From: Nitrososphaerota archaeon
Lineage (GTDB): Archaea; Thermoproteota; Nitrososphaeria; Nitrososphaerales; UBA57
Direction: 5' to 3'
Assembly: GCA_013378385.1 (NCBI GenBank)
Contig: JACAFS010000060.1
Coordinates: forward strand, 1-5,182
DNA: 5,182 nt
A program made the translations under genes and the position numbers. The notes under the pieces were generated by a model, which was not told the DNA's origin, ran no database searches, and saw only the letters and a list, made by a program, of their open reading frames with translations. Positions 2,184 through 5,182 of this stretch are shown piece by piece (position 1 is the stretch's first letter; every line of letters begins with the position of its first letter).

Positions 2184-3359
2184 TTATTTCAAGATTTGAG
2201 AGATTGCGTCAGTAACAGTGCCTTTTTTAATTCTATCATCATATTCAGATAATATCGTTTCTAGACCAGTTAAGAAACGGCCAACCTCATTAGGACCAAT
2301 ATTAGCCATATGACCGACTCGTAAAGCGTTATTTTTCATTTCGCCGAATCCACTTGCTACTTCTACATTAAAGCGAGATTTTAATTCAGATTGAATATGA
2401 ATAGATTTTCCTGAAGGAACATGGAAACCTGTAACTGTATAAGCTCTATAATTTTCTTCGGCAACAAAATCTAAACCAAGAGATTCAACACCCGCATGAA
2501 TCGCGTTAGCGACATTTTTATGACGATTCCATCGATTTTCTAAACCTTCTTCCATAATCATTTCAAGTGCGGTTTTTAATGCAACCATTACTTGAATAGC
2601 AGGAGTAGCGATGTATGTTTTAGGATTATCCATATGAACCTTCCATTTTTTAAGATTTAGATAATATGAAGGAATAGTTGATTTACGGTTTTCAAGTAAC
2701 TCAATAGCATTTTGTGAGAGCATCATAAGCCCTGCCCCAGGAACTGAACCGATTGCTTTTTGAGATGTAGTTAATACAACGTCTGCTCCAAGCCTGTCAA
2801 AATTCAATTCACAGCCTCCAACACCGCATACAGAATCAACTATTGCAAGAGAATTATTATCTTTAACAACTTTAACTAATTCATAAATATTATTCATAAC
2901 TGTAGAAGAGGTATCAACATGAGTGATGAAAACTGCATCATATTTATTTTTCTTAAGTTCAGTTTGTAGAATATCAGGATCTGCATGGCTGCCAAAATTA
3001 AAAGACAAAGTATTTGAATCAATACTGTAACAATCAAGCATTTGACCAAAACGTTGTGCGAAATATCCAGTATCTACAATAAGACCTGTATTATTTTGTT
3101 CTAATAAACTTAAAACAGTCGCTTCCATAGCAATTGTTCCAGAACCGGTAATTACGAAAGGCGAACCGGTATCAGTCCCGAATAATTTTTTTGATAAAAC
3201 AAGTAATTTATTAAAGTCGTCGGTAAATTCTTCGCTCAAATGTCCCATTTGGTTGTTACTCATAACATTTCTTACTCTTGAATCCACTACAGTAGGTCCA
3301 GGAACCATTAGAAATGAATCATATGGATCGCGATTATCTTCTTTAGACACGTTATTCAC
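2184..3359 (-). CDS. Class V PLP-dependent aminotransferase (alanine/serine-glyoxylate or serine-pyruvate aminotransferase family), 391 aa
   Basis: Motifs seen: N-terminal LMVPGPT; GSGTIAMEA; FITHVDTSS; IVDSVCGVGG; and the PLP-binding Lys in TTSQKAIGSVPG (Lys201, nt 2757-2759). The start called by the track is GTG (3359-3357), one codon after the in-frame stop at 3365-3363. The next start is ATG Met18 at 3308, directly in front of VPGP. Confidence 0.9.
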   Translation of the reverse strand: MNNVSKEDNRDPYDSFLMVPGPTVVDSRVRNVMSNNQMGHLSEEFTDDFNKLLVLSKKLFGTDTGSPFVITGSGTIAMEATVLSLLEQNNTGLIVDTGYFAQRFGQMLDCYSIDSNTLSFNFGSHADPDILQTELKKNKYDAVFITHVDTSSTVMNNIYELVKVVKDNNSLAIVDSVCGVGGCELNFDRLGADVVLTTSQKAIGSVPGAGLMMLSQNAIELLENRKSTIPSYYLNLKKWKVHMDNPKTYIATPAIQVMVALKTALEMIMEEGLENRWNRHKNVANAIHAGVESLGLDFVAEENYRAYTVTGFHVPSGKSIHIQSELKSRFNVEVASGFGEMKNNALRVGHMANIGPNEVGRFLTGLETILSEYDDRIKKGTVTDAISQILK

Positions 3360-3413
3360 TATTCAAATGTTGTTTAAAAATTGTTGGAAAAATTAAAATT
3401 TATAATAATAACA

Positions 3414-3475
3414 GGTAGCTCGGTCAAATGCCTTCTCGTCATAATTCTACGTAACTCTGAGTCCTCATTGCTACC
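3414..3475 (-). ncRNA. Candidate archaeal box C/D sRNA (62 nt) with variant boxes
   Basis: The minus strand reads GGUAGC-A-AUGAGGA-CUCAGAGUUACG-UAGA-AUU-AUGACGA-GAAGGCAUUUGA-CCGA-GCUACC. In order these are: a 6-bp terminal stem (3475-3470 pairing with 3419-3414), a C-like box (3468-3462), a 12-nt spacer, a D'-like box (3449-3446), a 3-nt loop, a C'-like box (3442-3436), a 12-nt spacer and a D-like box (3423-3420). All four GA dinucleotides needed for the k-turn and k-loop are present. The region is locally GC-richer than its flanks. TTATAA (3501-3506) is centred about 28 nt upstream of the 5' G. T5 and T4 runs lie downstream (A-runs at 3388-3392 and 3395-3398 on the + strand). Confidence 0.55.
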
Positions 3476-3500: not shown

Positions 3501-4163
3501 TTATAAGTTCATATTTTCTTTAACCTGAATTACTCTATTAGCAATATTCAATATACGTTCATCATGAGTAGTAATAAATACAGTTTTTTGATTCATAATT
3601 GAATCTCCTCGAATTAATGACAAAATCATCTCAGAGATTATCGGATCTAAGCCTTCAGTTGGCTCGTCCATTAATAATATCGGAGGGTCATTAACCATAC
3701 TACGTGCGATGGATACAATCTCAGATTCTCCAACACTTAATGTACCGGCTAATCGATCACTAAGAGAAATAAGACCAAGTTTATCTAAAGTTTGATCAAC
3801 AATTGATTGTCGTTTGTTTTTATCAATACCGCTGAACATTAATGGAAGTTCTAAATTTTGTGATATTGATAATTCAGGAACTAGATTTGATTTCTGAGGT
3901 ACTATACCAAATATTTTTGCGCGCAATGTAGATAATTTATCTGGTGAAAGCTTAGTAATATCATACTTATCAATATAGATTCTTCCAGAATCAGGCTTCA
4001 TAATTCCACATATTAAATTAAGTAATGTTGTTTTACCCGAACCAATAGTTCCTTTGGCAGCAATAATTTCACCTGATTGAATTTCTAGATTTACGTTTGA
4101 AAAAATGGTATTATTTTCATAACTCATTGTGATATCCAATAATTTTATTATCGGAATTTGCAT
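3501..4163 (-). CDS. ABC transporter ATP-binding protein, MJ0796/LolD/FtsE/MacB-type, 220 aa
   Basis: ATG at 4163-4161. Motifs seen: Walker A GTIGSGKTT (residues 38-46); Q-loop GIVPQ; signature LSVGESEIVSIARSM (a divergent form of LSGGQ/EQQRVAIARAL); Walker B ILLMDEPT; D-loop EGLD; and H-switch FITTHD. It starts 6 nt after the permease stop codon. Confidence 0.9.
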   Translation of the reverse strand: MQIPIIKLLDITMSYENNTIFSNVNLEIQSGEIIAAKGTIGSGKTTLLNLICGIMKPDSGRIYIDKYDITKLSPDKLSTLRAKIFGIVPQKSNLVPELSISQNLELPLMFSGIDKNKRQSIVDQTLDKLGLISLSDRLAGTLSVGESEIVSIARSMVNDPPILLMDEPTEGLDPIISEMILSLIRGDSIMNQKTVFITTHDERILNIANRVIQVKENMNL

Positions 4164-4169
4164 AGATAA

Positions 4170-4694
4170 TCACTGATATAAATTATTTTGTTTGAATGAT
4201 TGAATAATTGCAGCATATGAACCAATACATATGCCAATAATTGTCAAAATTGAAATATATAATATAGAATTTTGTAATATATTTGGAATAACATTTAGTG
4301 GAAGCTGTAAAGTATATACAACACTTGAGCCAATAATTATACCACAAAATAATCCAATTAAACCAACTATTATGAATCTAGATATTATAATAGAAATTAC
4401 CGAACGAGTCTGTGCTCCAAGTTGATTAAATAACATCAATTTACTTTTTGATGATTCAATAGTTTGCTTTGTAAGTAGATATTCTGAAACAAATACAAAA
4501 CAGAAAGTAATTACACTAGTAAATATAATTCCAGGACCAGTTAACAGACTAGATAATATTATTGCATTAATAGTAGTCATAGCAATTATTAATATTGCAA
4601 GTCTGGATTGGGCTTTACCCATTGTTAATCCAGTAGTAATTAATTCTAATACCAAATTATTACCAGCTAGAATTATTCGAAAGATATTTTCCAA
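4170..4694 (-). CDS. FtsX-like ABC permease, minimal 4-TM form without an extracytoplasmic domain, 174 aa (150 aa if the ATG at 4622 is used)
   Basis: GKAQSRLAILIIAMTTINAIILSSLLTG resembles TM1 of MacB/LolC/FtsX permeases (K.RS.L..LGI.IG.A.VI...SLG.G). It runs directly into an FtsX-domain-like region: ITFCFVFVSEYLLTKQTIESSKSKLMLFNQLGAQTRSVISIIISRFIIVGLIGLFCGIIIG, comparable to ...R.REIGILKALGA.R..I......E.....G..G...G. One more TM helix follows (ILYISILTIIGICIGSYAAII). The start called by the track is TTG (4694-4692), and the first ATG is Met25 at 4622-4620. Confidence 0.75.
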   Translation of the reverse strand: MENIFRIILAGNNLVLELITTGLTMGKAQSRLAILIIAMTTINAIILSSLLTGPGIIFTSVITFCFVFVSEYLLTKQTIESSKSKLMLFNQLGAQTRSVISIIISRFIIVGLIGLFCGIIIGSSVVYTLQLPLNVIPNILQNSILYISILTIIGICIGSYAAIIQSFKQNNLYQ

Positions 4695-5182
4695 CCGTTA
4701 TCAGTACGTTCAGATTTAGGCATTGGTTTATGTTCTTTATTTGTATCAGGTTTATTATCAGGAATTGATCCATCTTCCATAGGACTTAGATCAGGATGTT
4801 TATTTGCAAAATCTGTAATTTTTGAAATAAATGAATCAGTAGAATCATTATTCTCAGGTTCCTCAAATAATTTAAAATCAGTGTGTTTATCATCATTTGA
4901 TGTTTCTATTTCACTTGCAGCGGCATGAGGACGTTCAGTAATAATAAATGGATGTGATTCAGGTTCAAATTCTGGATCAATAGGTACGATAGTAGGATGA
5001 ATTTCTTTATCTTCTGTAATAGTGTCAGGACCGTCTTCAATTATTTTATTCTGATTCATAAGTAATCCTGAATCAGGATTATAATCTGGTTCTACAATTG
5101 GTTCTGGTTCTACAATTGGTTCTGGTTCTACAATTGGTTCTGGTTCTACAATTGGTTCTGGTTCTACAATTGGTTCTGGTTC
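4673..5182 (-). CDS. Acidic Glu/Asp/Pro-rich low-complexity protein with N-proximal perfect (EPEPIV)n repeats. 5'-partial, since the ORF is open to the window edge.
   Basis: The track ORF starts at ATG 5059, but the same frame stays open for all 41 codons up to 5182. That stretch reads EP(EPIVEP)x5-DYNPDSGLL-MNQNK... The unique part contains a degenerate echo of the repeat (HPTIVPIDPEFEPESHP), which argues that the repeat is translated. Stop TAA at 4675-4673. There is no recognisable catalytic motif. Confidence 0.6.
   Translation of the reverse strand, partial: EPEPIVEPEPIVEPEPIVEPEPIVEPEPIVEPDYNPDSGLLMNQNKIIEDGPDTITEDKEIHPTIVPIDPEFEPESHPFIITERPHAAASEIETSNDDKHTDFKLFEEPENNDSTDSFISKITDFANKHPDLSPMEDGSIPDNKPDTNKEHKPMPKSERTDNGWKISFE
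5063..5081. repeat. Perfect inverted repeat TAATCCTG-AAT-CAGGATTA (8-bp arms, 3-nt centre), 3 nt upstream of the internal ATG at 5059 and at the junction of the repeat array with unique sequence
   Basis: Arms at 5063-5070 and 5074-5081 are exact reverse complements. The repeat lies in-frame within the open reading frame, encoding YNPDSGL. Confidence 0.8.
5087..5182. repeat. Perfect 18-bp tandem repeat TGGTTCTACAATTGGTTC, 5.3 copies, truncated by the window end
   Basis: Units at 5087-5104, 5105-5122, 5123-5140, 5141-5158 and 5159-5176, plus a partial unit at 5177-5182, with no mismatch. The internal substructure is TGGTTC / TACAAT / TGGTTC. The minus-strand translation is EPIVEP per unit. Confidence 0.95.

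Follow-up and report, generated by a model that had tools for sequence, protein, structure and literature searches.

A candidate dual-guide box C/D sRNA of an uncultured marine thaumarchaeon with two predicted target adenosines in 23S rRNA

With a probability that we put at about 0.85, the 62-nt element described here is an archaeal box C/D sRNA with two guides, encoded by an uncultured thaumarchaeon of the sea (Nitrososphaerales MAG lineage), and would direct ribose methylation at two adenosines of 23S rRNA. We regard it as a further example of a known RNA type and not as a new kind of system. The element was found in a stretch of 5,182 nt of DNA, which in its whole length is called the window in the following. 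The proteins encoded in the window were recovered on marine metagenome contigs. The closest genome records are the MAGs Langseth_MAG_00051, ATL, UBA223 and ALOHA_A2.5_79 (Nitrososphaerales or Thaumarchaeota archaeon), and a UniRef entry carries the name "uncultured marine thaumarchaeote". In the literature searched, almost nothing on C/D sRNAs in Thaumarchaeota was found, with 4 papers naming both.

Anatomy of the element and its orthologues

An ABC transporter ATPase gene and a class-V aminotransferase ORF are separated by a gap of 141 bp, and the element is located in this gap (Table 1). A preliminary description had placed it there, and the minus-strand anatomy given there (3475 to 3414) turned out on direct reading to be correct to the base. 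The C box is of the RUGAUGA type, has U2, G3 and A4, which are invariant in all orthologues, and departs from the consensus only at nucleotide 5, where published sRNAs show wide variation. U2 is the flipped-out L3 nucleotide, G3 and A4 enter the sheared pairs, and G5 is position 3b of the k-turn. The D box is of the CUGA type with its GA dinucleotide and with the 5' C which pairs with G6 of the C box (4b.4n). A terminal stem of 6 bp unites the C and D boxes, and the D' and C' boxes form an internal k-loop (UAGA or UUGA, a loop of 3-7 nt, AUGAC(G/U/C)N). Both guide spacers are 12 nt long, here and in every orthologue; the range expected in archaeal C/D sRNAs is 10-12 nt (PMC7994747). The GA dinucleotides are intact in 4/4 boxes. 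The G+C content of the element is 47%, against 31% for the whole window. For the RNA alone the stability of the fold is unexceptional (z = -1.1), as expected since the C/D fold is protein-dependent.

Table 1. Features of the element and its surroundings, in window coordinates
Feature	Position	Strand	Basis and remarks
ABC transporter ATPase gene	3501..4163	-	Pfam ABC_tran, E 1e-31; conserved upstream neighbour of the sRNA
Candidate TATA-like element TTATAA	3501..3506	-	26-31 nt upstream of the sRNA 5' end; putative role
Complete box C/D sRNA, 62 nt	3414..3475	-	direct reading; covariance model 94 bits; sole descriptor match in the window
Terminal stem, 5' half GGUAGC	3470..3475	-	pairs with 3414-3419 in 5/5 variants
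Spacer A between 5' stem and C box	3469	-	direct reading
C box AUGAGGA	3462..3468	-	direct reading
D' guide CUCAGAGUUACG, 12 nt	3450..3461	-	antisense to 23S helix 69 loop; predicted methylation target opposite U3454
D' box UAGA	3446..3449	-	direct reading; GA dinucleotide invariant
C'/D' k-loop, 3-nt loop AUU	3443..3445	-	direct reading
C' box AUGACGA	3436..3442	-	direct reading; AUGAC invariant
D guide GAAGGCAUUUGA, 12 nt	3424..3435	-	antisense to 23S H70/71; predicted methylation target opposite U3428
D box CCGA	3420..3423	-	direct reading; C2 is k-turn position 3n
Terminal stem, 3' half GCUACC	3414..3419	-	stem-pairing analysis
T-rich run TTTTAATTTTT downstream of the sRNA	3388..3398	-	possible oligo-T termination signal
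Class-V aminotransferase ORF	2184-3359	-	other side of the 141-bp gap

Five sequence variants of the element, with 83-100% identity, were found in three lineages of marine Thaumarchaeota, in which the flanking aminotransferase is 56-96% identical. The flanks diverge, with an identity of 56-64% over the 25 nt upstream and of 48-85% over the 60 nt downstream. Members of the window clade, whose aminotransferases are 73-96% identical, have an identical or nearly identical element next to 25 nt of upstream sequence with 56-64% identity, and in L006-L008 (aminotransferase 59%) and L016 (56%) it is 83-85% identical with a downstream flank of 48-52%. The preliminary description expected the boxes to be conserved in relatives, and they are, across three lineages with diverged flanks; it saw the G.A pairs intact in both motifs, and the GA dinucleotide is invariant in all four boxes among the orthologues. 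A covariance model built from the five variants found 13 copies with 75-94 bits in the three lineages and nothing else in 1.07 Mb. It found no copy in 60-odd more distant Nitrososphaerota loci, which means little because these loci were centred on the aminotransferase rather than on the ABC ATPase. When the ABC ATPase was used as a protein query, all relatives obtained had at least 84% identity, and the family was not extended.

The terminal stem is 100% paired in the five variants, compared to 0-50% in slid controls. Its third pair covaries from U-A to C-G (GGUAGC/GCUACC to GGCAGC/GCUGCC); this one compensatory pair is supportive rather than statistically strong because it represents a single evolutionary event. 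The boxes vary within limits. The C box AUGAGGA is invariant in the window clade and L006 and reads AUGAAGA in L016, and the D' box is UUGA instead of UAGA in L003-L005. The C'/D' loop has 7 nt in L003 and 5 nt in L016, against 3 nt in the window, and the C' box is AUGACUU in L006 and AUGACCU in L016. The D box is CUGA in L006 and CAGA in L016, with C1, G3 and A4 invariant and C, U or A as nucleotide 2.

The k-turn position 3b.3n is formed by C-box nucleotide 5 and D-box nucleotide 2 and is usually U.U in box C/D k-turns (PMC5689011). The G and C found here were first read as a compensated change, a reading which the orthologues do not support. They have G-C in the window clade, G.U in L006-L008 and A.A in L016, and therefore no Watson-Crick pair is maintained; a single substitution suffices to go from G.U to G-C. 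Watson-Crick 3b.3n pairs block the folding of k-turns in metal ions alone, and a natural U4 k-turn (3b.3n = G-C) and a box C/D k-turn both fold on binding of L7Ae (PMC4382518). The k-turn in the 5' stem-loop of human U4 snRNA naturally has G-C at 3b.3n as the element does, although it belongs to a spliceosomal RNA and not to a methylation guide. It is unfolded in Mg2+ alone and folds when an L7Ae-family protein binds (PMC4382518). This agrees with the protein-dependent folding which is thought to suit C/D RNP assembly (PMC5689011).

Published guide RNAs carry the same boxes. Among the sRNAs tabulated by Dennis et al. (2015; PMC4644070), UGAGGA was counted as a substring 169 times and UGAUGA 258 times. 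IHOsR83 of Ignicoccus hospitalis combines AUGAGGA with CCGA and thus has G-C at 3b.3n, IHOsR92 of the same organism has the same non-consensus boxes, and MKAsR6 of Methanopyrus kandleri has the same GAUGAGGA/GAUGACGA/CCGA box set; the guides and targets of all three are unrelated to those described here. MKAsR6 is abundantly expressed, with a coverage of 26900 (Dennis et al., 2015; PMC4644070). The G-C at 3b.3n is therefore nothing new but a variant which is tolerated and has been documented before. It is correct that every box is off the textbook consensus, as was pointed out at the outset, but this is not notable: what looks odd in the boxes is ordinary variation that published guide RNAs of archaea also show.

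Complementarity of the two guides to 23S rRNA

Archaeal LSU rRNAs were gathered in two ways, by a pattern scan of metagenomes and by way of an ORF predicted in antisense across helix 69 to H71. The metagenome pattern (GTAACTYTGR-N12-16-TYAAATGYYTT) demands a U opposite guide position 1, so that the common CCAAAUGCC form falls outside it; it gave 98 matches, mostly by chance, of which 4 were LSU rRNA. A combined two-target pattern found nothing in the viral contigs which were scanned with it. Contigs with the antisense ORF yielded full 16S-23S operons, the lineage of which is only loosely established, none being assigned to the host lineage. One such operon adjoins a gene with the Pfam domain "Thaumarchaeal output domain 1", and tblastn searches with the genes flanking the rRNA operons gave no matches in the thaumarchaeal loci. 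The ORF itself, a spurious 94-aa reading frame antisense to 23S domain IV (motif DKAFGYL(E/K)RVRVTP), is routinely gene-called in the archaeal LSU loci (L103-L199) and forms clusters of up to 45 members in a public protein collection; an NCBI-derived copy (P0135) is on a 2-kb contig. This ORF antisense to helix 69-H71 is a database artefact.

All archaeal LSUs retrieved contain GGGAGUAACUCUGAC...AAGGUAG(C/U)CAAAUG(CC/UU)UUG. On the complete operon L187 the D' guide forms 10 contiguous Watson-Crick pairs through guide positions 2-11 with the target AGUAACUCUGAC (LSU 2011-2022), and the D guide forms 10 through the same positions with CCAAAUGCCUUG (LSU 2036-2047). For both guides this is the single best site in the LSU of L187, the next-best runs being at most 8 bp, and the 16S of the operon has nothing comparable for either guide. 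Shuffled guides reach 10 bp in 17/2000 trials. A distance of 25 nt separates the two sites, which belong to the intersubunit-bridge region of domain IV. Complementarity of at least 9-10 bp including the N+5 nucleotide was found on related archaeal LSUs, and we would expect the same pairing in the host's own 23S.

The two targets predicted in the preliminary description exist in related archaeal 23S rRNA as the 10-nt cores GUAACUCUGA and CAAAUGCCUU, which are conserved in 8 divergent archaeal (metagenomic) LSUs. The same cores are present in the 23S rRNAs of four cultured Crenarchaeota (Pyrobaculum, Thermoproteus, Sulfolobus and Ignicoccus) in a seven-species alignment, in which the euryarchaea Methanococcus and Methanopyrus have GUAACUAUAAC instead (Dennis et al., 2015, Additional file 3; PMC4644070). 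A tRNA T-loop target for UCAAAUGCC was considered and rejected, by reasoning only, as it would violate the conserved G53-C61 pair.

The natural variants of the guides all agree with these targets. The D guide is invariant in all orthologues except for nucleotide 1 in L014, where the change G1>A stands opposite an already unpaired position. In the D' guide the variant A4>G (L003/L004) faces a U and gives G.U, and C3>U (L014) faces a G and gives U.G, and the pairing is kept by wobble in both. Position 2 of the D' guide varies between C, A and G and pairs only in the window clade; the D' duplex is 9 bp in L006 and L016, assuming the same sequence in their 23S.

Two rRNA genes among those retrieved have unusual arrangements. 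The 23S gene of L195 (9242-13047, minus strand) has an insertion of ~790 nt encoding a LAGLIDADG homing endonuclease (intron ORF 10255-10926). It is located exactly between the helix 69 loop and H70/71 target sites, which are 788 nt apart in this gene. In the metagenome contig L149 (1-322, 367-2493) an LSU 3' end, with the best match to positions 2956-3401 of the eukaryotic model, is found 45 nt upstream of an archaeal LSU start; tandem rDNA, gene permutation and misassembly are possible explanations.

Under the N+5 rule the nucleotide chosen by the D' guide is the second A of GUAAC in the helix 69 loop (A1913 in E. coli), and that chosen by the D guide is the third A of CAAAUGCC at H70/71 (A1938 in E. 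coli). That the N+5 nucleotides are adenosines, as was proposed from the element itself, holds for both guides on archaeal 23S. The numbering was derived from the sequence GGCCGUAACUAUAACGGUCCUAAGGUAGCGAAAUUCCUUG carried by E. coli 23S; the rrl copy used is 2898 nt long and its positions are 6 below those of the standard 2904-nt numbering. When E. coli genomes were searched by BLAST with the helix 69 region of archaea, only two small records came back. Both nucleotides have methylated equivalents in eukaryotes. Yeast Am2256 (snR63) precedes Psi2258, the equivalent of E. coli 1915, by two nucleotides, and its human equivalent is given as Am3749 (PMC2794176); from this distance to the pseudouridine it follows that Am2256 equals A1913. 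At H70/71 yeast A2280/A2281 are methylated by snR13 (PMC4174444), and A2281 equals A1938 using the same offset of 343. H68-71 is a recognised hotspot of archaeal methylation, and dual guides usually target sites less than 100 nt apart (PMC7994747; PMC4644070).

Known RNAs have nearly the same guides. The D guides of Sac-sR113 from Sulfolobus acidocaldarius (CUCAGAGUUACU-CUGA) and of IHOsR91 from Ignicoccus hospitalis (AUCAGAGUUACG-CUGA) are each 11/12 identical to the D' guide described here, and, with the same register to the box, they are predicted to target this adenosine of helix 69 as well. In these RNAs the guide is in the D position with an unrelated D' partner, whereas here it is in the D' position, and their hosts are hyperthermophilic Crenarchaeota whereas ours is a mesophilic marine thaumarchaeon. 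The D guides of Sac-sR125 (AAAGGCAUUUGU-CAGA) and IHOsR109 (GAAGGCAUUUGU-CUGA) are 10-11/12 identical to our D guide and also target CAAAUGCCUU at H70/71, but their D' guides target other sites. Sac-sR125 has the C box AUGAAGA and the D box CAGA, exactly the boxes of the L016 orthologue. All four sequences are from Dennis et al. (2015, Additional file 1; PMC4644070). Both guides of the element end directly at the box, as in these counterparts, with the same antisense element in the same register. The likeness to Sac-sR125 and IHOsR109 lies in the shared guide, and it may reflect either orthology of the whole RNA or convergence on the same site. By alignment yeast snR63 (Am2256) and snR13 (Am2280/Am2281) serve the same two rRNA nucleotides, with the same RNP mechanism. 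Eukaryotes use two separate, longer snoRNAs, mostly with a single guide each, where here one 62-nt RNA has both guides.

The element might instead be a C/D-shaped RNA which binds L7Ae and has a main role other than methylation. It might be a folding chaperone of rRNA which bridges helix 69 and H70/71, and the distance of only 25 nt between the targets as well as the chaperone function discussed for dual guides (PMC7994747) would fit this. It might also be a regulatory k-turn in the 3' UTR of the ABC operon or in the 5' region of the aminotransferase; L7Ae-binding k-turns are known in mRNA leaders (PMC6298567), and in every case the sRNA is closely linked to the gene of the ABC ATPase. We consider such a role improbable. 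The strict 12-nt spacing puts N+5 on adenosines which are methylated in eukaryotes, the sRNAs of Sulfolobus and Ignicoccus which share these guides are themselves predicted to guide methylation, and a purely regulatory k-turn needs neither two conserved spacers antisense to rRNA nor a second C'/D' motif.

Transcription, gene neighbourhood and the role of chance

The sRNA is presumably expressed as an RNA of roughly 60 nt from its own TATA-like promoter. An A/T-rich motif of the CTTA(U/A)A type is found 26-31 nt upstream of the 5' stem in all lineages, at -29 to -31, as TTATAA in the window clade and as CTTAAGG in L006 and L016. The copy in the window overlaps the stop codon of the ABC ATPase, and the copies in L014, L006 and L016 are outside coding sequence. 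T-rich tracts follow the element in most orthologues. A second motif in the gap, AATTTTTAAAC (window 3372-3382, minus strand), ~15-25 nt upstream of the GTG/ATG start of the aminotransferase, is invariant in the window clade while its surroundings diverge; probably it serves as BRE/TATA for an mRNA with a short leader or none.

The ABC ATPase gene precedes the sRNA by 25-100 nt in each of the three lineages, including those cases in which the aminotransferase has another location. The upstream neighbours are a conserved cluster of a small FtsX-like permease and the ABC ATPase, an FtsEX-like pair (window 3501-5059, minus strand; L006 7619-9682; L016 5934-7966). In L006-L008 and L016 the cell-division gene CdvA is immediately upstream of this pair, and an FtsEX-like pair adjoining CdvA in Thaumarchaeota might be linked to cell division. 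About 5 kb from the sRNA three tandem 83-aa ORFs with no Pfam match are present in L003 (15742-16569) and L004 (7545-8372), and in L006-L008 a single 83-aa ORF comes after the sRNA.

The location invites the interpretation that the element has no function of its own and simply forms the 3' UTR or a terminator hairpin of the operon with the FtsX-like and ABC ATPase genes, the case which the preliminary description had named against itself. The element does begin 25 nt after the ABC stop codon, T-rich sequence follows, and the position downstream of the ABC gene is conserved. A terminator would, however, keep its stem and T-run and not 50 nt of "loop", and it is this loop, the boxes and guides, which is most conserved and matches rRNA. 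A mere terminator fails to explain rRNA-complementary guides conserved across lineages. The fold is moreover not unusually stable, and the TATA-like motif at a fixed distance suggests a promoter of its own. Even if the sRNA were transcribed together with the ABC operon and then processed, it would be functional, and its function would be unchanged. We regard the hairpin interpretation as very improbable.

How often such a layout arises by chance was estimated with a relaxed descriptor (RUGANGA, 10-13 nt, NNGA, 3-9 nt, NUGANNN, 10-13 nt, CNGA, and a terminal stem). It accepts all the deviant boxes and was written after the element had been seen, so its figures are indicative; the evidence from conservation is independent of it. 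In the window this site is the sole match. Dinucleotide-shuffled windows gave a match in 1/2000 cases with a stem of at least 4 and in 0/2000 with a stem of at least 5, and in 1.09 Mb of thaumarchaeal loci all matches were orthologues of this element. This agrees with the early judgement that the combination is very unlikely by chance.

No Rfam family reaches its gathering score on the element. The best matches are the generic C/D families sR17 (RF01144; 21.6 bits where the gathering score is 36, E 0.086) and sR14 (RF01145; 16.5 bits where it is 38). They share the generic archaeal C/D layout with the element and have unrelated guides; with these sub-threshold scores the element belongs to neither of them. 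A consensus-driven scan could indeed miss it, as had been anticipated. A further weak match in the window, to snoR25 (4834-4901, minus strand; 27.3 bits against 50, E 0.41), is inside a 128-aa ORF (4673-5059). It has AUGAUGA and CUGA motifs, and it is probably due to chance because its spacing is not archaeal-like.

A chance resemblance, or a decaying sRNA pseudogene whose four off-consensus boxes and sub-threshold Rfam matches would mark loss of function, is strongly disfavoured and barely credible, as neither the shuffles (stem at least 5) nor the 1.09 Mb of related DNA gave false positives, the lineages have these "deviant" boxes in fixed form in spite of diverging flanks, and identical variants occur in abundantly expressed published sRNAs such as MKAsR6.

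Proposed mode of action and significance

For the dual-guide sRNA we propose the following model, which is built on the established C/D sRNP. The 6-bp terminal stem would unite the C box (AUGAGGA) and the D box (CCGA) into a k-turn, and C' (AUGACGA) and D' (UAGA) would form the internal k-loop. Both motifs would be bound by L7Ae, after which Nop5 and fibrillarin assemble. The 12-nt spacers would pair with 23S rRNA through positions 2-11, and fibrillarin would 2'-O-methylate the nucleotide opposite guide position 5. By analogy with the known particles, binding of L7Ae, Nop5 and fibrillarin and methylation at the two predicted sites are thus to be expected. Because the sites are 25 nt apart in the intersubunit-bridge region, the RNA may also help this region to fold.

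A more far-reaching hypothesis, which we hold to be unlikely though worth stating, is that this one RNA is an ancient, selectively retained dual guide for A1913 and A1938, two specificities which Crenarchaeota and eukaryotes distribute over separate guide RNAs, and that in a streamlined mesophile with very few sRNAs it serves mainly as a clamp by which the domain IV intersubunit bridge is folded. If this were true, the boxes and D guide shared with Sulfolobus sR125 would represent orthology back to the TACK ancestor, and both sites would be among the oldest guided rRNA methylations shared with eukaryotes.

Two specificities (A1913 and A1938) which are split over separate RNAs in Sulfolobus and Ignicoccus are combined here, which amounts to a re-pairing of guides. 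The orthologues provide a natural series of G-C, G.U and A.A at 3b.3n within one orthologous k-turn. This series fits the biophysical data, according to which the position tunes ion-dependent folding and is unneeded for folding driven by L7Ae. For annotation, the element would add a well-supported box C/D sRNA gene, missed by consensus scans and Rfam, to an uncultured marine thaumarchaeal lineage. The model predicts two 2'-O-methyladenosines in the intersubunit-bridge region of its 23S rRNA, at the same nucleotides which are methylated in yeast.
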